From a virus (lineage: Duplodnaviria; Caudoviricetes): DNA of 54,932 nucleotides. A program made the position numbers and the translations under genes. The stretch covers positions 1-54,932 of IMG/VR virus record IMGVR_UViG_3300010413_000058. One strand, written 5' to 3'. Below, in pieces: positions 24,636 to 51,184 of this stretch (the stretch's first letter is position 1; each line of letters starts with the position of its first letter). The notes under the pieces were generated by a model. It worked only from the letters and a program-made list of their open reading frames with translations. It was not told the DNA's origin and ran no database searches.

Positions 24636-26066
24636 TTATGGTTTGAATGCTGCGGTTACGCTCACCCAATTATCTGACGAAGACATACTAAATGCTTTTG
24701 CAGCCGTTGCACCTGCACTAGCCTGTTCAAAAACACCAAATGCCGCCAAGACTCCAGCACTCGTGTCCTGCTGTTCTTCTAGTATTTGTGTATCAACGCT
24801 AGGCCACGAACTTACCGATTGCACACCCGCTGTATCCTGTGATATGGCAACAAACACAAGGGAATTGTCTTGGTTGGTAGTCACTGAAGGAGCCGTGGCA
24901 GTAGAGCTTTCAGCCTCATCCTTGCCACTCACATCCAACGGAGAACCCGCTGCCCCCGTAACCCTTGCTATTGCACAAACGTAGTCGGCAGCAGCAGAAA
25001 ATGTCCAAGAATAATTTGACGGCTCACTCCCGCCGGCCACCTGGTACCAAACTGATAATGATGCGGAACTTCCATGTATGTCTTGCTGAATTACGGTAAA
25101 TTCTGAACTGTCAGAACTATGTGTTCGTCCATCATCGCTGGCTACCATCGCAACCAGTAAGTCACCGCTAGACGTTCCACTCGGTTTCGTAACTGTACAG
25201 CCAGTAGAATCGCCCTTTGCGTATTGGTAACTCTCGTAAACTGGAGTGCCTGAAGGTGGAGCTTCGCCAGGAGGTTCTATAAGAGCCGTACTGACTGTGA
25301 CTTCATCTACATAGTAATAACAGCTAGTAGTGGAATTTGAGGTATCCTCAAAGTAGATTGCCCTAACCGCATAGTCAGCGCCATCTTCATACAGGATATA
25401 GTTTGAGGAGTTGGTCTGTAACTGTGTTGGAGTGTCGGTCCACACTCGCAATTCACAGCCATTGGCTGTGTTGCGTCGCCCACGTAAAGCTATATAATAG
25501 ACATTTCCTGCTGTGAGGGTGAAATACTCGGAAGGAGAGGACGTCATATCAAAGGACAACTTTTGAACGCCTGATTCATCCCGCAGGTGAATATCACATA
25601 CTGAATTGCTGGTGTCGCTGTCGTTGATGTGTCCTATATAGCCAGAATATGCATCAGTTGGCACATCTGGGGCTTTATACCACCAGTGAAAGTATCGGTC
25701 TGTCTGGTCAGAGTTAAGAACACCCCCAATGTTACAGGCTGGATCACCATCGGTATTGCAGTTGTTATTGTTATTAACTTCTATTTCAACCGAATGAGAA
25801 AGATGTTTTGACCATGCCGTAGAGTAGGTGTTTATGTGGTTCCCACTTGCACCGCTATCGTCAATTACCCAATCATTCGAGCAGAAATCATCCGCTCCAT
25901 ATTCAAACGACTCTATGATGTCACCACCACCCCAATCAAGAGAGCCAGTACAACTGTAACCCGATTCTCCACCTCCGATGAATACAAGATTAATGCCACC
26001 AGGAAAGGCCAAACTAGGCACGGTCAATAAAAGCAGAAGAATTACGAGTGATAAATACCTTTTCAT
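24636..26066 (-). CDS. Secreted Ser/Asp/Cys-rich beta-sandwich protein
   Basis: Signal peptide MKRYLSLVILLLLLTVPSLA; C-terminal KPSGTSSGDLLVA...EPSNYSWT...APSVTT domain. Confidence 0.7.
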   Translation of the reverse strand: MKRYLSLVILLLLLTVPSLAFPGGINLVFIGGGESGYSCTGSLDWGGGDIIESFEYGADDFCSNDWVIDDSGASGNHINTYSTAWSKHLSHSVEIEVNNNNNCNTDGDPACNIGGVLNSDQTDRYFHWWYKAPDVPTDAYSGYIGHINDSDTSNSVCDIHLRDESGVQKLSFDMTSSPSEYFTLTAGNVYYIALRGRRNTANGCELRVWTDTPTQLQTNSSNYILYEDGADYAVRAIYFEDTSNSTTSCYYYVDEVTVSTALIEPPGEAPPSGTPVYESYQYAKGDSTGCTVTKPSGTSSGDLLVAMVASDDGRTHSSDSSEFTVIQQDIHGSSASLSVWYQVAGGSEPSNYSWTFSAAADYVCAIARVTGAAGSPLDVSGKDEAESSTATAPSVTTNQDNSLVFVAISQDTAGVQSVSSWPSVDTQILEEQQDTSAGVLAAFGVFEQASAGATAAKAFSMSSSDNWVSVTAAFKP

Positions 26067-27094
26067 TAGTTACCTTCCACTATGTAAGCTGAGCACCATA
26101 TTTGAAGATAATCGATGTCTTCGCTGTCTACTGTTGCGTAAATAATACTGCCAGCCGAAATAGTTCCGCTATCAATAGTTCCGTTATCTTCGCATTCGTA
26201 CACATTGGTGCAGGTTATTGCTTCTATTGTAGTTGGCGACCCATCACTAGGGGAACTGTAATCCTTCAACGTCACTGTATAAGTCACTGTGTTGTCATCA
26301 AGTTTCAATCCGCAATCAGTTATTATTATGCCATGAGGGTAGTAATCGTCCTCTATCGGCCACAGCGGAAAAGTAGATACTGCCTGACCATCAGGGTCAA
26401 CAATCGTAGCGACTAATGGCTTATCCCTGCAGGCATATAGCCTTGACCCCACAGAATCACGGACCTCAATACAGGCATCATTGTTATCGTGAGCAATGCG
26501 GCCCTCGGCGGCTGTAGTAGGCTCGTTAGCATTCGGCAGAGTGATGTATGATACGTTCATGGTGTTTGACCAGGAGGGCGTGCCAGAGCTAACCATCAAC
26601 ACTTCGCCGTTATTACCAATGGCAAACCTGGTCAAGGTGCTTGAACTATATCTAAGCAGATCACCTTCTGCCCATCCTGAAATTGCCGCTAATTCGTCCA
26701 GTTCTGAGTCTTGAGGTTGTGCTCCTATACTCGCCACCGCTTCTGGTCCTGTTGTTGCTCCAGTTCCACCTGCTGGTATTGGTAGATTCTGCAATATCCA
26801 TCTACCATTTCCAGCTCCATCAGGATCTACTATACTAGGTAAATTTTCATCTTCACCACTATCCTCATCATATTTATAAAACAGAGGACCACCATAGGTA
26901 GAATCGGAAGGAACAACGGCGGTTTCTCCATCAATCATTCCTGTCAAATCATCTAAATCATACCCTGTGGTACAACCACCATCAATACATTTTCTGCCAT
27001 AATGTTTTTGCTGTGCCCACCCTTTACCCGGTAAAACCGTTAAAAGGAATGTGAAGAATACCAGGATCGTCATAATAGGGTATCTTCTCACCAC
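26066..27094 (-). CDS. Signal-peptide-bearing tail-fibre-like protein
   Basis: SD AAGGAGGTGA then GTG; hydrophobic N-terminus ending GWA; LPIPAGGTGATT and QPQDSELDELAA tail-fibre motifs. Confidence 0.65.
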   Translation of the reverse strand: MVRRYPIMTILVFFTFLLTVLPGKGWAQQKHYGRKCIDGGCTTGYDLDDLTGMIDGETAVVPSDSTYGGPLFYKYDEDSGEDENLPSIVDPDGAGNGRWILQNLPIPAGGTGATTGPEAVASIGAQPQDSELDELAAISGWAEGDLLRYSSSTLTRFAIGNNGEVLMVSSGTPSWSNTMNVSYITLPNANEPTTAAEGRIAHDNNDACIEVRDSVGSRLYACRDKPLVATIVDPDGQAVSTFPLWPIEDDYYPHGIIITDCGLKLDDNTVTYTVTLKDYSSPSDGSPTTIEAITCTNVYECEDNGTIDSGTISAGSIIYATVDSEDIDYLQIWCSAYIVEGN

Positions 27095-27107
27095 CAGAAT
27101 CACCTCC

Positions 27108-27620
27108 TTAAAGGAACAGAACACTTTCAGTTAAAACCATATTGCCCCCAGAAGCCGAGAAGTCAAACACAATCGCTTCACATTTTTCCAAATCAAATTC
27201 TCTGTAGAAATCCGTGATAGCTTCTCCACTAATAGGAACAACAGGTGTACCAAAAGTCCAAGCCTCTCCCGATGTATTAGCCTTGCAGGCTCTCACATCT
27301 ACAGTAAGTTCGGCAGCGACAGGACCAGTTCCTTTCACAAGCAGAGCAAAGCTTCTGGCAGCTTCAAAATCAAATAATTCCAAATTGAATGGTCCTGCTC
27401 TCTTCGTCTGTCCATCATTTATCGTAAGATCACTCTCGATGAGGACATCAAGTTTGGACTCTGTGGGTTCTATAGGGGCGGCAGTAGGAATATGGGAAAC
27501 AAGAGTTAGATCAGGGTCATACACATAATGGGAAACTTCCTCTGTAGCTCCATACAGAATGCTCTTTCCCCTAGCAACTAAGGTGGCTTGATCGGATCTA
27601 TCATTACGGTATCTGGGCAT
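27108..27620 (-). CDS. Hypothetical virion-associated protein (2 SGE motifs)
   Basis: SD AGGAGGT before MPRYRN. Confidence 0.65.
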   Translation of the reverse strand: MPRYRNDRSDQATLVARGKSILYGATEEVSHYVYDPDLTLVSHIPTAAPIEPTESKLDVLIESDLTINDGQTKRAGPFNLELFDFEAARSFALLVKGTGPVAAELTVDVRACKANTSGEAWTFGTPVVPISGEAITDFYREFDLEKCEAIVFDFSASGGNMVLTESVLFL

Positions 27621-27643
27621 TTCAGCACCTCCTTCCATTTATA

Positions 27644-27672
27644 AAAGTATCACAAACAGTTAAACCTCGCAA
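27644..27672 (-). promoter_or_regulatory. Putative sigma70-type promoter
   Basis: TTGCGA, 17-nt spacer, TACTTT with extended -10 TG, in a rare AT-rich intergenic gap. Confidence 0.45.
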
Positions 27673-27673
27673 T

Positions 27674-28186
27674 TTATTTTCTAATCTCCTTCTTGGCTAG
27701 ATAGAGAAGGACATACAGCATTGCTTTCAATGTGGTTTTCTGATCAGTAGTAAGGCTTCCAAATACGTTTTCAACATGAACAGGAATCTGGTCATAATTC
27801 AGGTTTTCAACTAGCTCAGTCAATCTCTGTTTCAGTTGTCTATTATCTGACATGCTAGACGCTCGGTTTGCTTGCTCAATCGTATATTCTGCATCAGACA
27901 ATAGAATTATCGTCTTCGTAACCCCGACAGATTGTAGACGCAATTTGTGACGTTCATAGTATCGCATGGAAACAGGTTGGGAACCCGCAACAGGTACAGC
28001 ATGAAGCTCAAAATTACCGTCCTTGTATCTAACGTAAATCTCACTGAGGTTCATTAGGTCAACCACTTTGCCAATTCTGTGATCAAACCTCAGTCTTTCC
28101 CATCCCACTCCTCTAGGAACAGGACCTACATTTACACCCCCTTTCCATGGTCTTACTAGAATATCCTCATTGAGTAGAACTCTCAC
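27674..28186 (-). CDS. Hypothetical protein, possibly a tail-fibre assembly chaperone
   Basis: Position downstream of the fibre genes. Confidence 0.55.
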   Translation of the reverse strand: MRVLLNEDILVRPWKGGVNVGPVPRGVGWERLRFDHRIGKVVDLMNLSEIYVRYKDGNFELHAVPVAGSQPVSMRYYERHKLRLQSVGVTKTIILLSDAEYTIEQANRASSMSDNRQLKQRLTELVENLNYDQIPVHVENVFGSLTTDQKTTLKAMLYVLLYLAKKEIRK

Positions 28187-28661
28187 GCCTGTCCTCTATT
28201 TGCCCTACATCAATCGATAGAGCCGTTTCAAGTTTATCCACAACCCCACTTTCCTCCAGTGCCGACGCAAATCTGTTCATAACTAGCAGGGTATCTTGCA
28301 AGCCTTTAAATACCTTTCTCACCTGCTCTAGTTTTCTTATCACTCCCTTATTGAGAGCCGAACTCTGCGACAATCTGCTCCTCTGCTCCCCCAGAACTTT
28401 CCTCATCCCCCTGTAGACCCCTTCGTGATACTTCAAGTGTTGAGTCCAAAAGGAGGGGAGAAATACGTCTTCTTTCCTTAATTCTTTCGATGCTAGGGGC
28501 ATCCCTGTTTTGTCATCTAGCACCTTTTCCCAAGTCATCTCTACTGTCAAAGCCTTGACAACTGCCTTCTCAACCATATCCCGCACAGTGACTTCCAACT
28601 CCACTCTGACAGCCGATTTGATTGCCTCGTACAACCACTCTTTATCTTTCTTGGATAGCAT
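28167..28661 (-). CDS. Hypothetical protein
   Basis: ATG MLSKKDK with AAGGGGG upstream. Confidence 0.6.
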   Translation of the reverse strand: MLSKKDKEWLYEAIKSAVRVELEVTVRDMVEKAVVKALTVEMTWEKVLDDKTGMPLASKELRKEDVFLPSFWTQHLKYHEGVYRGMRKVLGEQRSRLSQSSALNKGVIRKLEQVRKVFKGLQDTLLVMNRFASALEESGVVDKLETALSIDVGQIEDRRESSTQ

Positions 28662-28672
28662 AAAATCCCCCC

Positions 28673-29326
28673 TTATGGTATCTTGATTGGGTAAATCATT
28701 ATGCCTACCGCAGCTTGAGGTCTCCAAGTTCCTAACGACGACCCTGTTGAATGGGTTATAGTAGGATCTGGTCCATCAGTTGTATAACCAGCAGTATAAA
28801 GAGAACTACCAACAGTCCCCGACCTGGTAATCAAATTTTGGCCTACAATCGTATCCTTTGCTACTCCATAGCCTCCATAAGTGCCGGCTGTACTTGGAGA
28901 TCCTACATTCTCCAAAGTATGTGAGTGAGATGAATGATTCGGAATAGTAATATCATCTAAATTCCACTGCCCCCTCTTACCCCAGACAGAATAATCCTGG
29001 TAACCTCCCCTTAAAGCCAACACTCTATCACCATTAGCCGTATCCTCCGTAAAACCCTCTTCCTGAGCACTTGCATACACCCACATCCTCGTGATGTTAG
29101 CTTCCGTCTGATCTCTGAAAGCAATAATACCTCTCCATTGACCACTCGCTCCTCTATGTCTTAGCAAAGATCCAGTTGTATCATACCACAGTTGTCCCGG
29201 CTCTGCGCTGGGTGCCAAAGGGCCTGAAAACGATGATCTTACAGAATACAAAGCATTCTCAATAGCCAACATATCCTGCTCTGAGTCATTGGTCATCTCA
29301 AAAAGATTAGTGGCAAAATTCTGCAC
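28673..29326 (-). CDS. Tail-fibre-like protein
   Basis: FSGPLAPSAEPGQLWYDT, HSHT and WRPQAAVG motifs typical of fibres. Confidence 0.65.
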   Translation of the reverse strand: MQNFATNLFEMTNDSEQDMLAIENALYSVRSSFSGPLAPSAEPGQLWYDTTGSLLRHRGASGQWRGIIAFRDQTEANITRMWVYASAQEEGFTEDTANGDRVLALRGGYQDYSVWGKRGQWNLDDITIPNHSSHSHTLENVGSPSTAGTYGGYGVAKDTIVGQNLITRSGTVGSSLYTAGYTTDGPDPTITHSTGSSLGTWRPQAAVGIMIYPIKIP

Positions 29327-29342
29327 CTTCCATCACCTCCCT

Positions 29343-32300
29343 CTATGTATAAAAGTTTATAGTCATAGCACTGACTAGACCTCTTATGGCCTCATTCGGG
29401 TCGAATATCTCGACTTGCATCTTGTAATATCTACCCTCAGTAATTGCAGCCAATATTTCCATCATTCTCGCTTCGTTAGCCATCTCTCCCGAATAACTGT
29501 CATCCCACATAAGTTTCATTCTAACGGTGGGAGCTGCGGTTAATTCAAGCAACTCATACCATTTCTTGCCTGTAATAACTTGGTACCATTTTTCTGAACC
29601 CGGAGGAAATAAATCTTCCCAAGTAGTTCCGCCTCCTATAGAGGAAAATGAAACATCAGCCCAAACCATCCTTGTGGCAATCGAACCAGCATCTACAATG
29701 TGACTTGTATAGATGGCATAGAGATTGTCTGCCCTAAATGATCTGTCTTGATAACCATATAAAATCCAATCAGATCCTCCCTCATCTCCATAAAACTCAA
29801 AATATGCGTCACTTACAAAGTCAAAATACCCATCATCGACAAATTCAAAATATGGATCTCCAGAACCCCCTCCACCTCCTCCCTCTATCTTAGCAGCCAT
29901 ACCGCCGCCATATTCACCACTAATATCAATCTCCCAAGCCAGAGTATTTTCCCCATCAACACTAAAATCACTTCCCTTGATACTTAGCCAATATTCATCT
30001 CCCTCTTCTACATCGAGACCACCAGCAGGCAACCTAAACGTAGTCCATTCAAATGTTGTGCCGATTCCTGTAACATCTATACCTTCCCCAGATAATATTA
30101 CAGATCCAGGATTTTCCCCGCTCATATCATAAATGTAAACACGAGCCTCCCCCGATGGGTCTCCTATTCTCATCAATTTGAATTGAAACTGGTCTATGGT
30201 GAAGTCTCTCTCTACGTTCCATTTCTGTGCATACTCATATGGGAATCCCCCTTTGTGAAATCTCTCCCCACTAACTAAACTAGAAATCCTTTCACCACTA
30301 TGTGTTCCCTGTAAGTAATCTTCGTATGAATACACCGTATGAGAAGCTCCAAAGAACTTTCCTCTAGGTATAACCTTAATATTATCAAAATAAATCGTAC
30401 CTAGATCACTCGTATTCTTACCAAATATCAGAGAAAACTCATCCTCCAGATCACTTAACGGTATTGCAAATTCGCCGGAAAACGTCTTTAATTCAGACTG
30501 ACTTGTGCCAGTTACATACCCATCCGCATACCCTCCATCCGTGACATTCCATATTCCGAAGAATATTTCCTTGTCACCTGCTGTTCCAGATTTACAATCC
30601 AACTGCACATCTAGAATAAGTTCTTCAAATAAATCTCCCATACTCTGCGAGGCAGATTGAGAGGACCCGCTAGTAGCATCCATCTCCAACATCTCACCTG
30701 ATATGCTCAGAGTACAATTCGTAGGAGTCCACCCATCAGTGTTAACACTAAAATGACCATTCCTTACCATGTTATAATAAATATCAGCCGAACCTTCAGA
30801 CGACCACCCTTTAGGAGTAGGTACTTTAGCTGTAGCCGATCTAGGGATTTCTCCATATACTTCATTATTGCTGAGAGTGTTGGCGTAGAATATGTGGGTG
30901 CCAGGCCTTACACCCTTTAGGCTGAGATTGGGAGACCTTAAGGCTCCTAAAAATACTCCACCCGTCCAAGCTCCTAATCGAAACTCATACAATTCAATGT
31001 CAGGGTCAGTTAGTTTTGTGGAATATAAATTGATTGCCTGCTCGGCGACAACTGCGGCTAGCCAGGGCAAACTGGATGGGGCAGTCACCTTTCCCGTCAC
31101 TCGGTGCTGTAATGGGGATATACTACCGAGGGCCAACTTAACACCCCATATGGAGACGGGTTGGAGTTTTATTAAATACAATTGGCCCTCTTCCACAGGG
31201 TCAATCGTAAAATTGGTATTCACATCATAGAGATACTTATAATCACTGTCTCCACTTCTCTTCACATACACTCTACAGTAATCATACCAAGGATAGTTGA
31301 TAGGCTGGTCAAAGGATATATGCAGACGGGTAAAAGTTCTTAATCTGTAATAATATGTTTCTTCGGTTATGCTTGGTCGATAAACTTCACCAGGTGATTC
31401 TCTCGGATCAACTAGGGCGGAAGAATAAACTTGATCCTCATTCAAATCATAATCATCATTATATAATACAGCATTCTCGTAGATGAAATCTATATCTACA
31501 AGACCATCAGTCCTGATCGTACTCCCTCTAACCCTGAACAACTCACCACTTATACCAAGTCCCCCTCTTCCAGTATAGCCATGCGTTATAGTAACAAGAT
31601 CGTGAGGATCAACTTGGAGTAATTCATCAGTAAATGTACCTCTAACTCCCCTATTTAATCTTGACCTCTCTAAAAAATAAACCCCAACATCTAATGCCTG
31701 CTGCTTACTCCCCATTCCTATAGCACTAAATTCTTGAATATTACCTACTACATCACCAACCTGAATATCATCTGTACTCCAATCCTTATCAGGATCAATG
31801 AACTTGACTTTGAACCCATCAGGTTTGTCCATACGAGAAGGCTCATACATCTCAATCATGGCCTTCCCCGTAGTCTCTTCTACTGCTACATGTTCATCTT
31901 TAATATGAAAGACGGGGACTTCATAATCTAAATCGGCATAGCGGAGATAAATCTTGTTGCTAAAGTGAACAAACTGACCTCTGAAAGACCTTAGAATAAC
32001 GTCAACAATGGTCTGAGAGGGAAGATCACTACCTATAGCATAGTTTAAATACCAACCTTGTAAATCACAATAGTTTGCAGCCTCAGTCCACGAATCAATA
32101 TCAATCTTAGAAACACTAACAGCCTTCCCATACCTAGTATTTGTCATATAGTCATAGAGACAGAGCACTGGATTATGGGAACCTACAGTCCAATTCAAAG
32201 GATCAGGATCAGAGAGATCAACATCTACCCAATTATAAGAAGCAGTCCTGAAATCATAAACCTTTCTTCCCTTTAGTAAATAGGTTCTGCTGGGAGTTCT

Positions 32301-32828
32301 TACAAAATAATCTTCATCATACTTCAGCCTCCACACTACATTGCACGTATATTTATAATGGTCGGTATGGCTGGGAAATGCTGCTGCTAAGTCTAGATCC
32401 TCAGTTTGATTTGATGCTCCGCTATGAAATGTAAAACTTTTAAGGTTTGAGGGGTATTCATTATGAAGAATCTCATCTAGCCATACTTGAGTTATACCAG
32501 TTATAGGATCTACATGTAAACCTTCACATTCCCCTTCTCCTAAAGAATCAACAATATATAAATATTTATTTTCATTTCCACCTGAATTTATAAATATCTC
32601 ATTAGAGCCAACCTTGTGCATTCCATAAATAAGCTTGATTGCAGCCTGAGTAGTTCGAGTATTTATCTGAAGTTTTCGACCTACGTCCTGATCGGGTTCA
32701 TGGATTGTTAAAGAGGCTTCAGCCCAAGCAGCCAACACAAGGGAAGCAGCCAACCAATACTGTTGAAAAGCAGCGGCTACGAAGGCCGCTACCATCAACC
32801 CTATTATCCTCGCTCTTTGGCTGCCCAT
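29343..32828 (-). CDS. Central tail fibre / host-specificity protein (lambda J-like)
   Basis: IKLIYG, LGEGE, KGRKVYD, NPVLCLYDYMTN.RYG, AANYCD; FN3-like and carbohydrate-binding-like inserts; 10 SGE motifs. Confidence 0.85.
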   Translation of the reverse strand: MGSQRARIIGLMVAAFVAAAFQQYWLAASLVLAAWAEASLTIHEPDQDVGRKLQINTRTTQAAIKLIYGMHKVGSNEIFINSGGNENKYLYIVDSLGEGECEGLHVDPITGITQVWLDEILHNEYPSNLKSFTFHSGASNQTEDLDLAAAFPSHTDHYKYTCNVVWRLKYDEDYFVRTPSRTYLLKGRKVYDFRTASYNWVDVDLSDPDPLNWTVGSHNPVLCLYDYMTNTRYGKAVSVSKIDIDSWTEAANYCDLQGWYLNYAIGSDLPSQTIVDVILRSFRGQFVHFSNKIYLRYADLDYEVPVFHIKDEHVAVEETTGKAMIEMYEPSRMDKPDGFKVKFIDPDKDWSTDDIQVGDVVGNIQEFSAIGMGSKQQALDVGVYFLERSRLNRGVRGTFTDELLQVDPHDLVTITHGYTGRGGLGISGELFRVRGSTIRTDGLVDIDFIYENAVLYNDDYDLNEDQVYSSALVDPRESPGEVYRPSITEETYYYRLRTFTRLHISFDQPINYPWYDYCRVYVKRSGDSDYKYLYDVNTNFTIDPVEEGQLYLIKLQPVSIWGVKLALGSISPLQHRVTGKVTAPSSLPWLAAVVAEQAINLYSTKLTDPDIELYEFRLGAWTGGVFLGALRSPNLSLKGVRPGTHIFYANTLSNNEVYGEIPRSATAKVPTPKGWSSEGSADIYYNMVRNGHFSVNTDGWTPTNCTLSISGEMLEMDATSGSSQSASQSMGDLFEELILDVQLDCKSGTAGDKEIFFGIWNVTDGGYADGYVTGTSQSELKTFSGEFAIPLSDLEDEFSLIFGKNTSDLGTIYFDNIKVIPRGKFFGASHTVYSYEDYLQGTHSGERISSLVSGERFHKGGFPYEYAQKWNVERDFTIDQFQFKLMRIGDPSGEARVYIYDMSGENPGSVILSGEGIDVTGIGTTFEWTTFRLPAGGLDVEEGDEYWLSIKGSDFSVDGENTLAWEIDISGEYGGGMAAKIEGGGGGGSGDPYFEFVDDGYFDFVSDAYFEFYGDEGGSDWILYGYQDRSFRADNLYAIYTSHIVDAGSIATRMVWADVSFSSIGGGTTWEDLFPPGSEKWYQVITGKKWYELLELTAAPTVRMKLMWDDSYSGEMANEARMMEILAAITEGRYYKMQVEIFDPNEAIRGLVSAMTINFYT

Positions 32829-39284: not shown

Positions 39285-39304
39285 TTGTATTTAGAGTCCA
39301 CTTA

Positions 39305-39898: not shown

Positions 39899-39944
39899 AT
39901 ACGACCTCACCTCCTTTCACAATAAAGTAATCTAAATTTTTGTT

Positions 39945-40705: not shown

Positions 40706-40708
40706 CTG

Positions 40709-40900: not shown

Positions 40901-41117
40901 ATTTCTCAGCGTCCTTTACAAGATTATCAATGAAAGGCCAAAACACTTGCGTCATGTATTCCACGGATGGCAAGTTTCGAGGATCATCTTTTGACCTTTT
41001 ATCAAATTCCCCTAAACTAATTGCTCTGTGGACCATCCTCAATTCTTCGAGAGACATAGAGAAGGTTACGTGGACATCTCGAATTTGAATATCTTTTACT
41101 TCAGGCATCAGTGCCAC
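40890..41117 (-). CDS. Hypothetical protein
   Basis: Coupled ORF. Confidence 0.55.
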   Translation of the reverse strand: MALMPEVKDIQIRDVHVTFSMSLEELRMVHRAISLGEFDKRSKDDPRNLPSVEYMTQVFWPFIDNLVKDAEKYVS

Positions 41118-43316: not shown

Positions 43317-43860
43317 ATCTTAACCTCTGAAACACCACATCAATCGTACAGGATCTATCATGGGGTATAGTGTCAATTTGAACTAACTTCAATAGGGGAA
43401 GGCGGGTCATTATATTCTGAATAAAAGGTTTTCCCACATTTACTTGATGGCTGGGATTTCCCCCTTCTTCTACCGTAGCATACCTTCCCCCTTGCATGTC
43501 AGGGAGCAGGAGAACTAAATACCCTTCAGGTCTGATCAATCTTCTCGCCCATCCATTGAGACAAGCAATGATTTCGTTTTCTGTTGGCAGGTCTTCAACC
43601 ATGTGGCTGCTGAAGACAAAATCGACAGGCTCGTAATGTACATACCGCACAGCATCCCAGTGAATAAACCTTCCCTCTGGAACTTGCATTTCACAAAGGG
43701 GTTGAGGAGATATGTCAACATGATAACAATCACCCAGAAGAAGAGGGCAACTGCCGCAGCCCATATCAAGACCCCGACCCTGAAGATAAGCCGCAACGTG
43801 TCCAACATTGAAGTCGAACTCGACCCTGACATTTTTTACGTCCTCCAAGCTATACTCCAT
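43306..43860 (-). CDS. SAM-dependent methyltransferase
   Basis: GLDMGCG, DFVFSSHMVED, IRPEGYLVLLLPD. Confidence 0.85.
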   Translation of the reverse strand: MEYSLEDVKNVRVEFDFNVGHVAAYLQGRGLDMGCGSCPLLLGDCYHVDISPQPLCEMQVPEGRFIHWDAVRYVHYEPVDFVFSSHMVEDLPTENEIIACLNGWARRLIRPEGYLVLLLPDMQGGRYATVEEGGNPSHQVNVGKPFIQNIMTRLPLLKLVQIDTIPHDRSCTIDVVFQRLRYDL

Positions 43861-44920
43861 TTAATTCCCCTGTCACATCCGTAACAAAACCCCTCTCTTT
43901 AACAATCTCAAAAAACCTTAGATGTCTCTCTGCCATTATTTTACTTGTGAATCTATGCTCGTACAGACGCCTACAGGATTCTCTAGAGATACTATCAATT
44001 TGCTTGAGGGCATCAACAGAGGATTGAATGGCTTGTTCTCTTTGTTCATGGGAATAGCCATCGTGATTAATAATGAATCCATGTTTTCCATGCTCTATTA
44101 TTTCACCTCCATTGTAGTTAATAGCTGAAGGTTCTTGAGAGTTTCCCCAACCTATAACAGGAACACCACACGCCAAAGACTCTAAGTTTATTACACCTAA
44201 CATCTCGTGGTACCCATTGAATATAGGATTAATTAGAGCCTTTGCCCTCCTCCAAACTCTGTATTTAATCTCGTCATCACATCCTCTTAACCATATGATC
44301 TGCCGTCCATCCACTTTTGGGAGTACATTATCATGGCAAAAAGGGTAGTGATAAGCAGGACCTATAAGGATAAGTCTCTCCCCTGCCCTCTTAGCTATAT
44401 CTATGGCTATGTCAGGGCACTTACCTGGGTCCATTCTTCCTATCCACAATGAAAAATTGTCGTGATCTTTGTCCCATTCTGGGTAAATCCATTCAGGAAC
44501 TCCATGATAAATCAAAGTACCTATCCCACCACTAACACTTTTGATTTTTTTAGAGTAAACTACCTTATTCTTGTCAATTCGGGGCAAATTGAAAAAGGGT
44601 TCTATAGTGAAAGGCCAATTACTTCTCAGATCATGGCTAATATAACCGGAGCCCATAAATGAATGTACATGGTCGAACTTTTTGTTTTTCTCAACCTCAT
44701 ACGCCTTAATTGCCTCAAGATAAATATCCCGATCGTCTTCCCAGGGGACCGACATCTCGACGAACTCAAATCCAGGCAAATCACACCCTTTTATAGAAAA
44801 CACAACACACTCATGCCCTATATCTCTCCACTCTCTAATCAAGTAATAGATGAGCCTTTCAGCCCCATAAATATGTCCTTCGCCGAATGGGTGGGCGTAG
44901 CCCAATACTGCGATTCTCAT
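43850..44920 (-). CDS. GT4-family (GT-B) glycosyltransferase
   Basis: MRIAV..YGAER, IYHGV, IGRMDPGK, EMLGVINLESLACGVPVI. Confidence 0.9.
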   Translation of the reverse strand: MRIAVLGYAHPFGEGHIYGAERLIYYLIREWRDIGHECVVFSIKGCDLPGFEFVEMSVPWEDDRDIYLEAIKAYEVEKNKKFDHVHSFMGSGYISHDLRSNWPFTIEPFFNLPRIDKNKVVYSKKIKSVSGGIGTLIYHGVPEWIYPEWDKDHDNFSLWIGRMDPGKCPDIAIDIAKRAGERLILIGPAYHYPFCHDNVLPKVDGRQIIWLRGCDDEIKYRVWRRAKALINPIFNGYHEMLGVINLESLACGVPVIGWGNSQEPSAINYNGGEIIEHGKHGFIINHDGYSHEQREQAIQSSVDALKQIDSISRESCRRLYEHRFTSKIMAERHLRFFEIVKERGFVTDVTGELNGV

Positions 44921-45234
44921 AATCCCAACTCCTTTAGCCGTTCTCTCTGCCATTGTTTCAATGTTTCGCCTACCGCTGTGTGCAATCTATTACCACACAC
45001 TGAACAAAAATTCACATCACCAAACAATTCAACCACCTGTTTGTGAAAACACGGGGTATTTATCTCTGTCTCAGAAAACAAAGGGGGAGGTACGTTAGGT
45101 TGCACATTGTCAACCCAATACATATCTCCACAGTAGGGACACCGATGTTTGCCTGGCACGATCTCAAAATCTGGCATACGCCAGAACCTGCCACACCCCA
45201 AACACATGTATCTATCCGTTGCTCTCCCCATCAC
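44917..45234 (-). CDS. Small double zinc-ribbon protein
   Basis: CLGC...CPYC, C.H...CSVC. Confidence 0.6.
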   Translation of the reverse strand: MMGRATDRYMCLGCGRFWRMPDFEIVPGKHRCPYCGDMYWVDNVQPNVPPPLFSETEINTPCFHKQVVELFGDVNFCSVCGNRLHTAVGETLKQWQRERLKELGL

Positions 45235-45971
45235 CTAATCCTTTCTGCCCACAGTTGGCCGTGACCTAACTTTGTGTGCTTGTGACTCCATTTTTTCTTT
45301 TCATTCTTAGCAAACCAGTGAAGAAACTCAAAATTCTGAGTCTCCACAATATCATCAAAGACCACAATACTTCCAATCTTTGAATAATCCCTAAAAAGCT
45401 TCCACTCCCTTATTATATGTTCAGTCGTGTGCAAAGTATCTTGAAAACAGAAATCCCATTCACCAATTCTAGGCATGACTTCTGTAAGGGTGTCATACGT
45501 CAATCCCTCTATGAACTCAACCTCAACATTCTTTAATCCTTTCATCTCCTCCAATCTCTTATTTCTCTTCTCAATCACTAATCCCCAAGACTTCCACCCT
45601 CTGGCACACACATGCTTTTCAGGGAAGTTCTTCCAATCGACTATTGGTCCTTCTTCAAAAGTTGGAGCGCAGCCATAAGGCTCCCCGAGAGAGTTAGCAG
45701 GAGAATGACCTACATCAAACGTGTATAACTTCCCTCCCCCATATTCACTCATTGCCTTAGCTATTTTATAAGTACCATAGCCCTCAAAAGTTCCCAGCTC
45801 CATTACTACATCGGGCTGCAAGACCAACAACGCTTGCACAATCATATCCATATTTGCATTGTCATGGACCCAGGGTCGCATAAAAGCCTCTGCCACACAT
45901 TCTTCGTGTGTTATTCCTTCACTCACTCTGGGCTTTATAGTATCCCAATTGTTTTCTAGAAATTCCATCAA
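45231..45971 (-). CDS. SAM-dependent methyltransferase (Methyltransf_24-like, possibly a sugar O-methyltransferase)
   Basis: VMELGTFEGYGT, LYTFD, DFCFQDTLH, GSIVVFDD. Confidence 0.85.
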   Translation of the reverse strand: MMEFLENNWDTIKPRVSEGITHEECVAEAFMRPWVHDNANMDMIVQALLVLQPDVVMELGTFEGYGTYKIAKAMSEYGGGKLYTFDVGHSPANSLGEPYGCAPTFEEGPIVDWKNFPEKHVCARGWKSWGLVIEKRNKRLEEMKGLKNVEVEFIEGLTYDTLTEVMPRIGEWDFCFQDTLHTTEHIIREWKLFRDYSKIGSIVVFDDIVETQNFEFLHWFAKNEKKKWSHKHTKLGHGQLWAERIR

Positions 45972-46708
45972 TAGTCCTTCCAGTAGCCAGGGTTAGCACA
46001 TTCAATAATCTGTCTTTTTGGAGTTGTCTCGAATACATCGTGAGTAAGACCTAACTGTTTTCTTCTCGCTTGAGCCCTCAACCACAATTTCTCAATCCTA
46101 ACCCTATCCCGATAATCATCCTTCTCAAAATGCTCCAGATCAGATTCAAATTTATAGTACGGCAAATCTTGAGGCCAAAGCACATGATGAGGACTATTTA
46201 CCCAGTGCATTCCAACCTCTCTCATTATCAATCTGCATTGGTAGTCAGGGTACTGACCTATTTGATGACTGATCAAGGGCCACCCATCCACTGAACTAGG
46301 AATTGCATAAGGTGATTCGGGAAATCGCAAAGGCTCATAAGTCCTGCGAGGCACATGGCCAACTTTATAGTAAAACCCACCCTCCTTGAAAGTTTTGTCC
46401 ACAAACTCCAGTTCCCTCTTGAGCCCATCTGTTAATCGCTCGTCGAAGTCGAGGATGAAACACATCTGCCCATGTGGAATATAGGAAAGAGCGATGTTGC
46501 TTTGGGTCGTTTCCATATCGTGAAACCAGTTGAGCCACGGGTGTATGAAGACTTCCGGTTTCTCGTACTCTCTGAGGGCTTGGACAGTGAAATCTGTACT
46601 GCCCCCATCAACCACAATAATTCTTTCAAAGTAAGATTCATTATGGACATTTTTCATTACCCTTTCTACTTGTTTCTCTTCGTTCAGACACTTCATTAGA
46701 AGAATCAC
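45968..46708 (-). CDS. GT2-family glycosyltransferase (SunS/GmaR-like architecture)
   Basis: NEEKQV, IIVVDGGSTDFT, FILDFDERL, YPDYQCRL, SPHH. Confidence 0.88.
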   Translation of the reverse strand: MILLMKCLNEEKQVERVMKNVHNESYFERIIVVDGGSTDFTVQALREYEKPEVFIHPWLNWFHDMETTQSNIALSYIPHGQMCFILDFDERLTDGLKRELEFVDKTFKEGGFYYKVGHVPRRTYEPLRFPESPYAIPSSVDGWPLISHQIGQYPDYQCRLIMREVGMHWVNSPHHVLWPQDLPYYKFESDLEHFEKDDYRDRVRIEKLWLRAQARRKQLGLTHDVFETTPKRQIIECANPGYWKDY

Positions 46709-46720
46709 GATTGTACTCCT

Positions 46721-47056
46721 TTACTTTAATCCTTTCTTCTTTTCTTCCAATTCCTTTATCTCCCGCTCTAAATTCAAACAATCGGTCTGTGCAGGTTGGG
46801 GCATACGTATGCAGTCTCTTGTTCCATATTGCTTGTACATCTGGTACAACATATCACGCTTGGTAGATATTCGGATGTCAACAAACTCAGCTTTGGAGAA
46901 AGCGGCTAAGAACTCTATCTTATCCTGTGTCTGCTCAAACTGCTCTTTGGTTTCTTCACAGGCTGTGAGGAAATCATTCATAGGAGTAAAATAGGATATT
47001 GCCCCTATCGTAGCCGCCACTATTGCTATCGCCACTGTTATATCCTTCCACGTCAT
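46721..47056 (-). CDS. Membrane-anchored small protein
   Basis: N-terminal TM helix plus coiled coil. Confidence 0.6.
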   Translation of the reverse strand: MTWKDITVAIAIVAATIGAISYFTPMNDFLTACEETKEQFEQTQDKIEFLAAFSKAEFVDIRISTKRDMLYQMYKQYGTRDCIRMPQPAQTDCLNLEREIKELEEKKKGLK

Positions 47057-49113
47057 ATCCCAAACGCCCCCTTTGGTTGCAATAGCTTTGTCAATTCTTT
47101 TACAACCAACATTGGGTTAATGGTACTGATACAGGGAGACATGCAGGGAGCTTTTCCTGGCTGCCCCCAGCAGTTCGCCGTAATTGGACAAACATCAAGC
47201 TTGTTAGGTTCCAAATTGATGATAGTGCCGTTGTCTGACCTTGGTCCAGTTACTCTGGCAGGAGCAGGGCCGTACAAGACTATTGCTGGGGTTCCTAAAG
47301 CCCCAGCTAAATGGCTCAGAAACGAATCGATAACCACGGCAGCACGGGCATTTTTCATAACCCACGCAGATTGTCTCCAAGTCAACTTCTCCCTCAAATC
47401 TAAAACTGTTCTCCTGCATGCCAGATCCTTTCCCATCCCCAGTTGAACGAACTTATACTGGGGCATCATTTGAATCACGACATCCATATGTCTATACGTC
47501 CTATACTGCTTCTGAGCACCAGCCGTTTGCACCACGATGTACTCATCAGGGAGTTCGATTTCAGGTTTTTCGAGCTTTATGAACATATTATCAGGTTCGA
47601 CTTGGCAGAAATAAGGGTACATAGAATGGAGAGGGACATCGAGATTGTTCCAACCTCCAGGGAGAATCTTTTCTCCATGAGGATTATATACAATCTGATA
47701 TTTCCCTAACATTGAATCGTTCCAACTAATAATCTCATCAACATATGGGTTCCCTTCTACTATATCCCGATACATATCCTGAGTCATGTAGACGAGAGGA
47801 ACATCGGGGTGTCTCTCCTTAATTCCCTTAAAACATTGAGTGCTCATCAGCACATCGCCTCCCGAGGAGTGCTGGGCGAAGAGGACTTTGTTGATCTTGG
47901 GAGGTCCAACCTTGATGCCAGGCTCTGTAGCCTCATCCAATAACTTGTTAATATTACTCGATCTTTCCATCCACTGCCTGGCTGCTTTAGCACCTTTCTT
48001 TATAATATCTCTCCTCAACCTGTCATCCCTAACAATCTTATCCATCTTATCAACTAGATCCGAAAAACTACAACACACCGACTCGACAAACGTGCGACCA
48101 CGCTGGGCTATGATAGGCACATAGGTTAATTCGTGGCAATCAACAGGCAATCCTGCTCCATCCGCCAGCAGTTCTATCTGCGCTGTGGTGTTGGAGGCTA
48201 CTACGGGGCATCCACACAGTTGAGCCTCCAATATCGTCCAACTCAGTCCCTCATGCGTCGAAGTATTCACTAAGCAATTCAACGAATTATAAATATCTAC
48301 CATCCTCTTTCTATCATAGAATATGTTAGGCTTCTTGGCAACGACATCTCCCGTCTTTGCCCCATATACCGCAGCATAATCATTCAATGTTTGCTCTAAA
48401 TTGTAAACCCCAGTCGTCATATCCGTATGAAGATAGAGGGTAACATTTGGGTTCTGCTTTTTGACTTCAAAGAAGGCTTTAATGGCTCTCTGAGGATCCT
48501 TCCGAAACTGATTAGGTCCTATGAATCCAAATAGAAATCGCTCGTCAGACAATTCAGGGAACAACTGGTGGCGAACTGCTATCTTTTCTTCAGGAGAGTA
48601 GATCCTGAACACTTCGTAATCGTTGACGGGCGGACGGAAATAGCGAAGTTCTGGAACATAAGGTTTTAAAGTGTGGTAGCCATATTTGGAGTAAACACAG
48701 GGGAAATCAAACACGCTGAACCATTTGGCGAAATCGGCTCTTATCTCAGGGAGGTCGTAGGGCATAATACATATAGTTTTCATACCCCTCAATTCAGCCA
48801 ACTGCATCAACGCATCATACACATGGGCGTACATCCATATATCTACTCCAACAATAACCAACACATCCAACTCATTGTGCTGAACAAAATTAATCAGATC
48901 CTTCCCGCCAAAATCCCTTTCATCCCTAGCAATCGTCACGTTGTAGTTGGGGAGTTTGTCTTCAAACACTTTGTTTCTAATGGGGGGTGGATAAGGAGAG
49001 AATATAGCAGGGATATAATTGTTCCTGTCAACCTGCTCCAGCAGAGCAGCCATCATATTAGCATTGCCAGTGACTCCAAGCGGATGGTCTCCTACGAATA
49101 ACACATTCTTCAC
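47053..49113 (-). CDS. Bifunctional glycosyltransferase, GT4 fused to GT9 (heptosyltransferase-like)
   Basis: NQFRKD, EGLSWTILEAQLCGCPVV; then SSGGDVLMST, NPYVDEII, IDSFLSHLAGALGTP.IVLYGP. Confidence 0.9.
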   Translation of the reverse strand: MKNVLFVGDHPLGVTGNANMMAALLEQVDRNNYIPAIFSPYPPPIRNKVFEDKLPNYNVTIARDERDFGGKDLINFVQHNELDVLVIVGVDIWMYAHVYDALMQLAELRGMKTICIMPYDLPEIRADFAKWFSVFDFPCVYSKYGYHTLKPYVPELRYFRPPVNDYEVFRIYSPEEKIAVRHQLFPELSDERFLFGFIGPNQFRKDPQRAIKAFFEVKKQNPNVTLYLHTDMTTGVYNLEQTLNDYAAVYGAKTGDVVAKKPNIFYDRKRMVDIYNSLNCLVNTSTHEGLSWTILEAQLCGCPVVASNTTAQIELLADGAGLPVDCHELTYVPIIAQRGRTFVESVCCSFSDLVDKMDKIVRDDRLRRDIIKKGAKAARQWMERSSNINKLLDEATEPGIKVGPPKINKVLFAQHSSGGDVLMSTQCFKGIKERHPDVPLVYMTQDMYRDIVEGNPYVDEIISWNDSMLGKYQIVYNPHGEKILPGGWNNLDVPLHSMYPYFCQVEPDNMFIKLEKPEIELPDEYIVVQTAGAQKQYRTYRHMDVVIQMMPQYKFVQLGMGKDLACRRTVLDLREKLTWRQSAWVMKNARAAVVIDSFLSHLAGALGTPAIVLYGPAPARVTGPRSDNGTIINLEPNKLDVCPITANCWGQPGKAPCMSPCISTINPMLVVKELTKLLQPKGAFGI

Positions 49114-49140
49114 GATTCTCTCCTTTAAAAGAGATTGCTA

Positions 49141-49779
49141 TCATCGGTCTCTAGTGTCGGTTTCTAACTCGGCAACATCTATGCCATCATATCTGCGGCG
49201 TTTTACAGTGGTAATCATATACCATTCGCCGCTTACAGGTGTAAAACGATCAAGGGATTGAATTTGATAAGATGAGGAGATGTAGAGTTCGTGCCTTTCC
49301 AACCCTAGCATCCCTAGCTCTACGTCCGTCTCCAATGAATGTCCGAACAGACTCTCCGTAACTAAAGCCTTGATATTGTCGTCTATAACATTCCATACAT
49401 GCTTCTTCTGATATGTCTGAGCATCCCAGTCTTCGCCTGACGACCGCTCTAGTTTTCCTGCCAGAACATTGCATTTGTAGAGGACGCTTTGGTACTCAAT
49501 TACTTCGTTCTCGAAAAGGTCAGGCGTCATGTTCATTAATAAGAACTTACGCCCATCCCCAGTGAACTCAACCACATCTCCAACCGCCGCTACGCTGTCG
49601 TACGGCAGAGATGCTTCAATGAAGTATTCTCGAATAAATGGTTTGGTTACTTGACGGTTAAGCTCAAAATCTAAGTAACCTGCCTCTACTTCTCCAGAGG
49701 CACCAGGTGCCGCCCGGACAGCACTGTACGCCGTGCCCACTTCTCTATAGACATCTTTAATATCGAACCCAATTGACAT
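49141..49779 (-). CDS. Putative head-closure / head-tail joining protein (3 SGE motifs)
   Basis: Position after the adaptor; beta-rich. Confidence 0.55.
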   Translation of the reverse strand: MSIGFDIKDVYREVGTAYSAVRAAPGASGEVEAGYLDFELNRQVTKPFIREYFIEASLPYDSVAAVGDVVEFTGDGRKFLLMNMTPDLFENEVIEYQSVLYKCNVLAGKLERSSGEDWDAQTYQKKHVWNVIDDNIKALVTESLFGHSLETDVELGMLGLERHELYISSSYQIQSLDRFTPVSGEWYMITTVKRRRYDGIDVAELETDTRDR

Positions 49780-50234: not shown

Positions 50235-50682
50235 TGTCCTCTTCCCTCACGATAAGAGTGGGTTTCTCGTAGTTGATTCCCTCAGTCAACGACTGAATGA
50301 GTTCCTCAGCTTCATCTTTCCTCAAAGCCGCCCTGTTCATCTTCATACCAGTCTCAGTATTGATGACATTGTACCAACCGCCACCTTTGTAATCCATTTC
50401 GTAGAGAGGTCTGGGTTCTTTCTCCTCCCCTTCCTCCACCTCTAGCCCCTCTTTCAGCAAACTCTTAGCAACGTCGCTGAAAGAGGGCTGAGGTTCAGGT
50501 GGAGGTGGAGGAGGGACGGCAGGTTTCTGATCAACTTGTTCAAAAATCCTGACCGTCCCTCTATCCAGAGCTATTTCTGCGGCTATTTCTCGTGGCATCG
50601 TGTCGTAGTCAAAGACGTGACCCTTATACCACAATTCCGTATCTCCTCTAAGAGTCGCCAATAATTCGATCTTTTTAGCCAT
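50227..50682 (-). CDS. Hypothetical protein (Pro-rich linker, GGGWYNV C-terminal domain)
   Basis: SD AAGGAGGT. Confidence 0.6.
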   Translation of the reverse strand: MAKKIELLATLRGDTELWYKGHVFDYDTMPREIAAEIALDRGTVRIFEQVDQKPAVPPPPPPEPQPSFSDVAKSLLKEGLEVEEGEEKEPRPLYEMDYKGGGWYNVINTETGMKMNRAALRKDEAEELIQSLTEGINYEKPTLIVREEDSD

Positions 50683-50698
50683 CGATTGTACCTCCTTG

Positions 50699-51184
50699 TT
50701 AGAGTGGCTCCACTTCCACGAGCAAAACAGCGTTGCTCATCTCACTGGTAGGCGTAGCGGTTCTAGTGAGAGCAGCATTCCACTGAATCACATCTCCCAC
50801 CGAAAACTCATTCGCAGCCGCATTGACAACAGCCTGAGTAACACCTGTGTCTCCGCTCTGCAAAGTCGTCTTCTGCATCGAAGCCTCACCGCTGACGTGG
50901 GCGATCTTAGGTTTTGTAGTCAAACACGAAACCCCATTAATCAACACATCAGCCTCCAGAGATAGAGCATTTGAATCATCTTTACCGCTTTTCAGCACCG
51001 ACAACGCCACATTCATAATCTTTCCAGAATAGCGAGCCATACCTAAGGCAATTCCGTTAGCGGAAGCCTTAACCTCGCCTGATATGAGTCCCATTGGGAT
51101 TCCCATATCGACAGCGGCAACTTGCTTGTCAAATGCTGGGCTAGGAAATGGACCCCTCCAATATCTCGGTTCGGTCGGACTCAT
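50699..51184 (-). CDS. Putative capsid decoration / head fibre protein (2 SGE motifs)
   Basis: Directly downstream of the major capsid gene; Ala/Val/Ser/Thr-rich beta protein. Confidence 0.55.
   Translation of the reverse strand: MSPTEPRYWRGPFPSPAFDKQVAAVDMGIPMGLISGEVKASANGIALGMARYSGKIMNVALSVLKSGKDDSNALSLEADVLINGVSCLTTKPKIAHVSGEASMQKTTLQSGDTGVTQAVVNAAANEFSVGDVIQWNAALTRTATPTSEMSNAVLLVEVEPL

Follow-up and report, generated by a model that had tools for sequence, protein, structure and literature searches.

A Ser-Gly-Glu tripeptide in phage virion proteins as a candidate O-glycosylation motif that tracks a fusion glycosyltransferase

Why would one tripeptide, Ser-Gly-Glu (SGE), recur in the structural proteins of a tailed phage that carries a cluster of glycosyltransferase (GT) genes between its head and tail genes? 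The question is raised by the IMG/VR virus record IMGVR_UViG_3300010413_000058, which was analyzed over its whole length of 54,932 bases (the window; estimated completeness, 65%). An original prediction, made from the sequence alone, had proposed that SGE serines are the sites to which the enzymes of this cluster attach a glycan. From the comparison of the window with its relatives, we consider that the phage probably encodes a system for glycosylating its virion, in which SGE is the O-glycosylation acceptor motif (sequon) and is read by GT1-9, a GT4-GT9 fusion glycosyltransferase of 686 amino acids (aa).

SGE tripeptides in the virion proteins of the window

We translated 66 chosen open reading frames (ORFs) of the window and scanned them for SGE. 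The tripeptide was found in frame at 21 sites in eight proteins of the virion module:

29343-32828 (minus strand): central tail fiber of 1161 aa with a J-like N-terminal part (phrog_31, central tail fiber J, 2.5e-42); ten SGE, at residues 427, 710, 784, 844, 853, 892, 903, 913, 970, and 1113
49141-49779 (minus strand): head-closure (stopper) protein of 212 aa, H212, assigned by fold match (AF2 model, pLDDT 83.8); three SGE, at residues 28, 114, and 183
50699-51184 (minus strand): h161, a 161-aa jelly-roll protein adjoining the major capsid gene (AF2 model, pLDDT 87.0); two SGE, at residues 35 and 98
27108-27638 (minus strand): distal tail-module protein of 176 aa with no family match; two SGE, at residues 123 and 137
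39305-39910 (minus strand): putative major tail (tube) protein of 201 aa, named solely from its place two genes upstream of the tape measure; one SGE, at residue 114 (H-S-G-E-V)
33896-34528 (minus strand): distal tail protein of 210 aa (Pfam DUF2460, 1.9e-15); one SGE, at residue 138
33240-33899 (minus strand): tail hub/assembly protein of 219 aa (phrog_778, 5.4e-13; Pfam Gp84_N, 1.6e-5, slightly under the cut-off); one SGE, at residue 122
26066-27124 (minus strand): tail-fiber-like protein of 352 aa (phrog_2097 tail fiber protein, 3.3e-6); one SGE, at residue 89

The 21 sites, the eight named proteins, and the ten fiber coordinates (29484, 29913, 30084, 30114, 30147, 30264, 30291, 30471, 30693, and 31542) agreed exactly with the original prediction. 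Its gene boundaries outlined the same proteins, with slightly different starts for 27108-27638 and 26066-27124. As for its labels, the name "head-closure" is now backed by a fold, and "tail tube," "Dit," and "hub" rest on position or weak family matches; the tube protein had no match in PHROG. The other 58 ORFs, including those of the tape measure, the major capsid protein, the protease, a Ser/Gly-rich protein of 1324 aa, and the GT cluster enzymes, were devoid of SGE, and so were all ORFs below position 26066.

An expectation calculated from the composition of each protein and summed over the window amounted to 4.96 SGE, with 0.55 for the fiber, where less than one site had been estimated beforehand. 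SGE was the most overrepresented of the 8000 tripeptides (Poisson p 7e-8), followed by GGG (2e-5). The enrichment survived shuffling, as anticipated: with 5000 shuffles run for each protein, neither the fiber nor the stopper ever attained its observed count (0/5000 for both), and p was 0.002 for 27108-27638 and 0.0014 for h161. None of the variant motifs was in excess (observed/expected: TGE, 2/4.7; AGE, 7/5.6; GGE, 2/6.1; SxE, 72/72.6), and SGD reached only 11/5.7. A Shine-Dalgarno-like signal was also considered and rejected, since GGE and AGE showed no excess.

At the nucleotide level, the pattern (Ser codon)GGNGAR had 22 matches on the coding strand between 26066 and 51184, 21 of them in frame, and a single match on the other strand. 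The ten fiber sites use all six Ser codons and have unrelated flanks. Together, these two observations exclude a DNA repeat or a composition artifact and uphold the earlier view that selection operates at the protein level. Among 130 nonredundant sites from related genomes, the residue before Ser was hydrophobic in 48% and that after Glu in 57%, against a background of 34%, suggesting that SGE occurs preferentially in the form hydrophobic-S-G-E-hydrophobic/aromatic.

The sites are conserved where homologues of the carriers could be aligned. In a family of four fibers with 74 to 77% identity, all ten SGE sites were kept, and the 30 motif residues were 100% identical compared to a column mean of 72%; a fifth, truncated relative (L002) kept 8 of the 9 sites that it covers. 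A homologue of the window fiber was undetectable in 9 of 10 long related records, and the protein collection held only three close homologues. As fiber homologues were too few, we replaced the comparison of fibers by that of stoppers, tubes, and whole distal tail modules.

Two of the carriers could be described by their predicted folds. The model of the head-closure protein shows the stopper fold twice in tandem, and each half matches phage stoppers: with VIA-align, residues 1 to 105 aligned with T4 gp14, the Pam3 neck, and the T1 stopper (Z of ~10), and residues 99 to 212 aligned with SPP1 gp16 and XkdH (Z of 8.7 to 8.9). Most of the solved stoppers among those listed have a single domain of ~100 to 125 residues. 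The stopper family comprised 207 homologues at an E of ≤0.001, and its consensus contains four SGE motifs. The h161 model is a TNF/C1q-like jelly-roll (best matches, Z of 6 to 7.7), and its matches to phage cement proteins (Z of 6.0 to 7.1) lie under the level that proves kinship. Its position beside the capsid gene suggests that h161 is a putative head decoration or cement protein. Both of its SGE sites were invariant or at least 90% conserved in 42 aligned homologues. The same alignment also showed conservation of S-G-K-D-D at residues 66 to 70, where G67 and D70 are invariant and S66, K68, and D69 are at least 90% conserved. Foldseek searches with the stopper model or the h161 model gave no match at an E of ≤0.001.

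Association of SGE with GT1-9

The enzyme cluster (42081-49113) separates the head genes from the tail genes and contains GT1/GT9, GT2, and GT4 domains. Pfam searches confirmed the GT, methyltransferase, and radical-SAM (S-adenosylmethionine) content that had been assigned to it within the head-tail operon:

47053-49113 (minus strand): GT1-9, the 686-aa GT4-GT9 fusion glycosyltransferase (Pfam Glycos_transf_1, 2.1e-11; Glyco_transf_9, 2.6e-9)
46721-47056 (minus strand): 111-aa protein inside the cluster, no Pfam match
45968-46708 (minus strand): GT2-family glycosyltransferase, a variable accessory (Pfam Glycos_transf_2, 2.9e-7)
45231-45971 (minus strand): SAM methyltransferase Methyltransf_24 (Pfam, 1.4e-11), weakly like rhamnosyl O-methyltransferase
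44917-45234 (minus strand): 105-aa protein with a weak zinc-ribbon match (Pfam DZR, 0.003, sub-cut-off)
43850-44953 (minus strand): GT4/GT1-family glycosyltransferase, an accessory (Glyco_trans_1_4, 7e-6, and Glycos_transf_1, 1.3e-5, both near the cut-offs)
43306-43860 (minus strand): SAM methyltransferase Methyltransf_11 (Pfam, 4.4e-4, at the cut-off)
42081-43316 (minus strand): B12-binding radical-SAM enzyme of the class-B methylase type (Radical_SAM, 1.4e-22; B12-binding, 6.1e-20; NCBIfam matches to BchE, PhpK, and others under their cut-offs)

To relate SGE to these enzymes, we compared the loci of relatives. A megablast search of positions 29000-52500 against the deposited phage collection found no close relative. 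A first sample consisted of 80 related loci from viral contigs, which were sorted according to the gene next after that of the stopper, identified by blastp with the window proteins. The stopper carried 2 to 5 SGE in all 41 loci where a GT1-9 homologue follows and 0 to 1 SGE in all 35 loci where tail genes follow directly; four cut-off loci were left unclassed. The same pattern was seen in a second sample, made of metagenome contigs and two genome-collection contigs, and in a third, made of viral contigs obtained with a different query. Scanning the genome collection with GT1-9 added only two loci, both from the same phage group.

The union of the samples held 227 loci with a stopper gene. After 109 had been dropped as duplicates or undetermined, 118 distinct stoppers with a known neighbor remained, and in 72 of these distinct loci GT1-9 was encoded directly downstream of the head-closure gene. 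Every locus with GT1-9 contained an ORF with at least two SGE (72/72), whereas only 3 of the 46 loci without GT1-9 did, and these three exceptions have exactly 2 SGE each, in proteins of 317, 582, and 1205 aa. Stoppers with at least two SGE were found in 67 of 72 loci with GT1-9 and in 0 of 46 without it. The five GT1-9 loci whose stoppers lack SGE form one lineage (L217, L223, L247, L256, and L263) with a full-length GT1-9 and no h161. Here, a 186-aa capsid-adjacent protein (e.g., L223:3692-4249) contains 4 to 5 SGE for 0.08 to 0.09 expected, and this protein did not match the h161 profile at E values up to 10. Thus, the expectation that the motif should track the GT cluster in relatives was borne out, in the precise form of an association with GT1-9.

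We then counted SGE in whole records with a simple custom ORF caller. Observed/expected numbers were 21/5.0, 16/7.3, 14/4.8, 20/4.3, 30/4.5, and 5/2.9 in the records with GT1-9 and 4/7.3, 5/5.6, 5/4.9, 3/3.3, and 3/2.8 in the records of the sister clade without it. In the distal tail modules, the GT1-9 records, excluding the window, totaled 35 SGE for 5.5 expected, against 8 for 7.5 in the others. The distal carriers in two GT1-9 records (G003 and G004), for example, a 971-aa protein with 11 SGE for 0.65 expected and a 456-aa protein with 5 for 0.24, are mostly not homologous to the window fiber by blastp, which argues that their SGE sites arose separately.

GT1-9 was the only window protein present in 5/5 SGE-rich records and in 0/5 SGE-poor records. 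By comparison, h161 (by tblastn) and the window GT2 each had a homologue in 4/5 SGE-rich records and in 0/5 others, and the window radical-SAM enzyme and Methyltransf_11 protein each had one in 2/5 GT1-9 records. Behind GT1-9, the gene content of the cluster differs greatly between lineages. Among 109 nonredundant accessory ORFs examined with Pfam, Methyltransf_24 was the commonest family (18 ORFs), followed by GT2 (15), radical SAM (14, with B12-binding in 4 and SPASM in 5), Methyltransf_11 (12), Methyltransf_23 (11), and GT8 (3), along with single DegT, RmlD, epimerase, and GNAT enzymes. These ORFs matched 40 Pfam families, the 25 most frequent of which included none for heptose-nucleotide synthesis. 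The smallest cluster, found in L069 and L070, is composed of GT1-9, a 71-aa ORF, and a 239-aa ORF. The earlier proposal that the cluster attaches a glycan therefore needs to be amended: SGE does track a glycosyltransferase, but this is GT1-9 at 47053-49113, while the GT2 enzyme at 45968-46708, which had been singled out for assay, varies between lineages, as do the methyltransferases and the radical-SAM enzyme. These comparisons make GT1-9 the candidate SGE-reading protein glycosyltransferase.

GT1-9 is made of an N-terminal GT4-like GT-B module (residues ~3 to 396) and a C-terminal GT9 heptosyltransferase-like module (residues ~412 to 680). The score for Glyco_transf_9 was 37.2 bits (cut-off, 22), and the NCBIfam matches to heptosyltransferases I/II were under their cut-offs. 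In a PDB profile search, the top match was B736L of chlorovirus NY-2A (3oy2; E 1.8e-10; positions 3 to 396), and the C-terminal module matched the GT9 structure 3tov, WaaF, and WaaC (positions 415 to 638). In 25 homologues, C642 and C648 were invariant and C657 and C661 were at least 90% conserved, forming the pattern C-x5-C-x8-C-x3-C.

Homologous sites were also compared for constraint between the two clades. The tube site read SGE in 11/11 orthologues from loci with GT1-9 and in 3/21 from loci without it, where variants included HTGE, HTGS, HSGS, HKGS, HLGN, and HAGA. On the tree of the H-S-G-E site, the GT1-9 subtree (11 rows; length, 6.49) showed 0/0/0 changes at S/G/E, whereas the subtree without GT1-9 (21 rows; length, 4.50) showed at least 9, 0, and at least 7, respectively. 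At the three conserved stopper sites (nine columns), there were 0 to 3 changes per column in the GT1-9 subtree for a column mean of 8.0 and 2 to 10 per column in the other subtree for a column mean of 3.5. SGE is thus not equally conserved without the cluster, in keeping with the original prediction: Ser and Glu are frozen only in the company of GT1-9, which indicates strong purifying selection there and a fold that tolerates their loss elsewhere.

Poly-Ser/Thr tails in the clade without GT1-9

The virion proteins of the clade without GT1-9 (G006 to G010; L009, L020, L047, etc.) end in a C-terminal poly-Ser/Thr tail of 12 to 45 residues. Such a tail was present on 26/26 capsid proteins, 24/24 stoppers, and 20/21 tube proteins of this clade, compared to 0/29, 0/32, and 0/7, respectively, in the GT1-9 clade. 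Several distal tail proteins of the tailed clade also contain Ser/Thr tracts hundreds of residues long. The two longest records without GT1-9 encode a second enzyme cluster behind their distal tail genes:

G006:C1:50154-59383 (minus strand): second enzyme cluster
G007:C1:24058-32470 (minus strand): second enzyme cluster

These clusters comprise GT2, GT4/GT1, methyltransferases, and Sulfotransfer_2 (two copies in G007), with a radical-SAM enzyme in G007. Relatives without the cluster had been imagined as GT-less, and this did not hold, since the two examined records without GT1-9 carry this other GT cluster and have poly-Ser/Thr tails instead of SGE. The second cluster may serve the tails, and its sulfotransferases hint at sulfated glycans. 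Of the 4 other tail-bearing records, 3 (G007, G008, and G010; 52 to 60% identity) encode a homologue of a 420-aa GT of G006. Of the 6 SGE-rich records, 5 encode none, the exception being a weak match (26%) in G001.

G001 is a complete record of 91 kb with terminal repeats. It encodes GT1-9 and carries SGE on the stopper, h161, and the tube, and the products of its distal tail genes (24784-37619) have poly-Thr tracts and no SGE excess. Its weak match to the GT of the other system is a 624-aa GT1-like protein (40076-41947, minus strand) with weak GT1 matches, adjoining a methyltransferase. This gene content suggests that G001 may run both systems. Among 138 stopper representatives, 66 were SGE-rich, 4 were tailed, 68 were neither, and none was both; three loci (L226, L234, and L255) have neither GT1-9, nor tails, nor SGE.

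Since the tails sit on the same virion proteins and, in the two examined records, come with an enzyme cluster of their own, acceptor type and enzyme set appear to have been switched together. The same virion proteins thus appear to display one of two alternative acceptor features, each with its own enzyme set. A bolder view, which we find tenable but somewhat doubtful, is that related phages possess two interchangeable "glycan display codes," SGE with GT1-9 and poly-Ser/Thr tails with a GT/sulfotransferase cluster, and that lineages change from one to the other by a swap of the cassette, the acceptors on the same virion proteins being rewritten meanwhile. SGE could then be written into any exposed loop of the stopper, tube, decoration, and fiber proteins.

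Interpretation and comparison with known systems

If SGE is the acceptor motif of GT1-9, this soluble two-module enzyme would act in the cytoplasm late in infection, where it would recognize SGE serines of virion proteins. Its acceptors would be h161, the stopper, the tube protein, and chiefly the proteins of the distal tail and the fibers. GT1-9 would start an O-linked glycan on this Ser, and the lineage-specific accessory enzymes (GT2, GT4, GT8, SAM methyltransferases, B12/radical-SAM enzymes, and sugar-modifying enzymes) would extend or decorate it. We infer from the pattern of association that the modification would be a glycan, that Ser would supply the attachment atom, and that GT1-9, rather than an accessory enzyme, would read SGE. 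The glycan may be methylated, and it may have a role in shielding, stability, or receptor interplay. A predicted complex of GT1-9 with h161 scored 0.00 in a run without controls and speaks neither for nor against binding.

Several observations weigh against this interpretation. The four proteins with a single SGE are individually nonsignificant (shuffle p of 0.05 to 0.13). The GT1-9 record G005 showed no significant overall SGE excess (5/2.9), and the distal tail proteins of G001, another GT1-9 record, showed none either (2/1.8). The N-terminal SGE of the stopper (S28 in the window) is poorly conserved even with GT1-9 and is variable in both clades. In the stopper and h161 models, SGE sites lie both in loops and inside strands. 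TibC, a protein glycosyltransferase with the GT9 fold, was absent among the PDB profile matches listed for GT1-9 (60 of 84; E up to 10). Furthermore, the entire case is one of sequence comparison, and its presence/absence part is close to a single historical event, on unrooted trees. The GT1-9 state changed once on the stopper tree (support, 99), once on a capsid tree from which the C-terminal tails had been left out (support, 100), and three times on a larger FastTree, giving one independent pair on supported branches and three on all branches. With one to three independent pairs, a sign test cannot reach significance, and another trait that separates the clades could in principle impose the SGE constraint. 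The behavior of the sites within each clade is therefore a stronger argument than presence or absence. In a wider set of 135 stopper-family representatives, the SGE-rich state changed at least 13 times, with at least 6 changes forced by supported branches.

These points bear on the alternative that SGE is a clade-specific structural or assembly motif, such as a strand-start turn or a contact site for another protein specific to the clade, and that the GT cluster only shares its ancestry and acts elsewhere (on DNA, the host envelope, or a single protein). The one to three changes of GT1-9 on the trees agree with it, and so do the location of SGE at loop-to-strand boundaries or within strands, its hydrophobic neighbors, and the tube-site Gly, which is invariant in both clades. 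However, a structural motif would not be expected to originate recurrently in nonhomologous fibers and in the unrelated 186-aa protein, and to do so only with GT1-9, and the same folds accept many S and E substitutions in orthologues without GT1-9. Moreover, h161, the other clade-specific virion protein, is missing from some SGE-rich lineages, and the clade that lacks SGE bears on these very proteins another feature that is a classic acceptor of glycans. We consequently judge this alternative, the main rival, unlikely.

Similarly improbable is that SGE marks another cluster-dependent modification, be it methylation or a radical-SAM reaction at Glu or Ser, or else transfer of phosphate or sulfate, with the GTs acting elsewhere. 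It would account for the abundance of methyltransferases and radical-SAM enzymes in the clusters and for the constraint on all three motif residues instead of Ser alone. Yet no enzyme of such a type is constant across the SGE-rich lineages, where GT1-9 is the sole constant partner; the minimal cluster holds GT1-9 and two small ORFs; and kinases are missing from the 25 most frequent Pfam families (40 matched in all).

Motifs of the S/A/G-x-E type are prohead protease cleavage sites in other phages, the window encodes a protease homologue (53186-54742), and SGE fits x-x-Glu. Cleavage by a head maturation protease is nevertheless very improbable. At least 18 of the 21 SGE are in tube, distal tail, fiber, or stopper proteins, and tail proteins are not inside the prohead; the major capsid protein is SGE-free, and AGE and GGE are not enriched. 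The location of the sites in tail proteins, together with the presence of the protease in clades both with and without SGE, in effect excludes this alternative. Finally, chance, composition, or a DNA-level repeat, for which one could invoke that four of the eight proteins hold one site each, can be dismissed with near certainty, given that SGE ranks first among tripeptides, that no fiber shuffle equaled its count, and that the excess is replicated in other genomes.

Known glycosylation systems resemble the proposed SGE/GT1-9 pair in part. Freeman et al., in Cell Host Microbe in 2023, are said to have described O-glycosylation of mycobacteriophage virions by phage glycosyltransferases expressed with the structural genes. 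According to a passage that cites this work, the glycans are on the C termini of capsid and tube subunits (PMC12619734). The systems have in common phage-encoded GTs associated with structural genes and virion structural proteins as acceptors, which here are candidates. They differ in that the candidate acceptor here is an internal tripeptide, in the stopper, tube, fiber, and capsid-adjacent proteins and not in the capsid, and in that the enzyme is a GT4-GT9 fusion. As far as the citing passage describes it, the mycobacteriophage mode is rather resembled by the sister clade, with its poly-Ser/Thr C-terminal tails on capsid, tube, and stopper.

In the BAHT family, TibC and AAH are cytoplasmic GT-B enzymes with a GT9 fold related to that of lipopolysaccharide (LPS) heptosyltransferases, which modify Ser, not Thr, at many sites of beta-rich surface proteins (PMC4358343). 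One mapped site of TibA has an N-S-G-G context, and TibC has a four-Cys iron finger close to the end of its catalytic domain; a strict tripeptide sequon is not described in the passages considered (PMC4358343). An N-terminal beta-barrel, a beta-hairpin thumb, a dodecameric ring, and ADP-heptose as the donor are further marks of the family. GT1-9 likewise has a GT-B domain related to LPS heptosyltransferases, and its C642, C648, C657, and C661 recall this iron finger. Unlike BAHT enzymes, it has a complete second GT-B (GT4-like) module, and not a beta-barrel, at its N terminus. As TibC was not among the matches listed, we regard this likeness as a resemblance and not as membership.

Chloroviruses use their own cytoplasmic GTs and the noncanonical sequons NTXT and NIPG on a structural protein, and their GT-B enzyme B736L binds GDP-mannose but has no known acceptor (PMC9614988). 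The likeness lies in virus-encoded glycosylation genes and in the N-terminal module of GT1-9, whose best solved match is B736L. In chloroviruses, though, which are eukaryotic viruses, the major capsid protein carries the glycans, N-linked through Asn, whereas here the motif is Ser centered, the virus is a tailed phage, and the capsid is spared. Short linear motifs around Ser also direct glycans, as SGE is proposed to do, in Bacteroidetes, with the O-glycosylation motif D-(S/T)-(A/I/L/V/M/T), and in proteoglycans, with Ser-Gly near acidic neighbors; these systems act in the periplasm or the Golgi, and their enzymes are unrelated.

Few systems of phage virion glycosylation are known, and the literature that we reached defines no short acceptor sequon for any of them. 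Among the papers listed by our search, none with an SGE motif dealt with glycosylation or phages, and no virion glycosylation sequon for phages turned up. SGE and GT1-9 would thus add a defined candidate sequon and an enzyme-tag pair to known phage virion glycosylation. If the proposal is true, with a three-residue tag read by a single soluble enzyme, virion glycosylation could be predicted from sequence, and the GT cassettes inside the structural operons of many uncultured phages would be explained. SGE and GT1-9 would also be of use in cytoplasmic glyco-engineering in bacteria and, on the bolder view above, would constitute a minimal, portable, cytoplasmic O-glycosylation tag and writer. Together with the sister clade and its poly-Ser/Thr tails, these phages lend themselves to the study of how viruses remodel the chemistry of their surface, which bears on receptor binding, stability, and recognition by the host and by immunity.

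The genes discussed above belong to a siphovirus-type late operon on the minus strand, which runs from ~54.7 kb down to 20.6 kb in the order head maturation protease homologue, major capsid, four small head/neck genes, the eight-gene enzyme cluster, tail genes with the tape measure and the J-like central fiber, and further distal tail genes. Its members that lack SGE include the following:

53186-54742: head maturation protease homologue of 518 aa (phrog_53, 4e-90)
51199-52422: major capsid protein (phrog_29, 9e-39)
34521-38513: tape measure
20652-24626: Ser/Gly-rich distal tail protein of 1324 aa; zero SGE for 0.46 expected

The profile match of 53186-54742 is to head maturation proteases rather than to portal proteins. 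Relatives have portal and terminase genes upstream of this point; the window, a record of 65% completeness, lacks both. The 1324-aa protein has a weak match to glycoside hydrolase family 26 (residues 723 to 816; E 7.6e-5) and so may degrade polysaccharide. Beyond the tail module, two small minus-strand genes, 15231-15863 and 17266-17820, have weak, sub-cut-off Pfam matches to a methyltransferase family and to Sulfotransfer_1, respectively; judging from these matches, they may be remnants or distant relatives of the cluster enzymes of the other clade.

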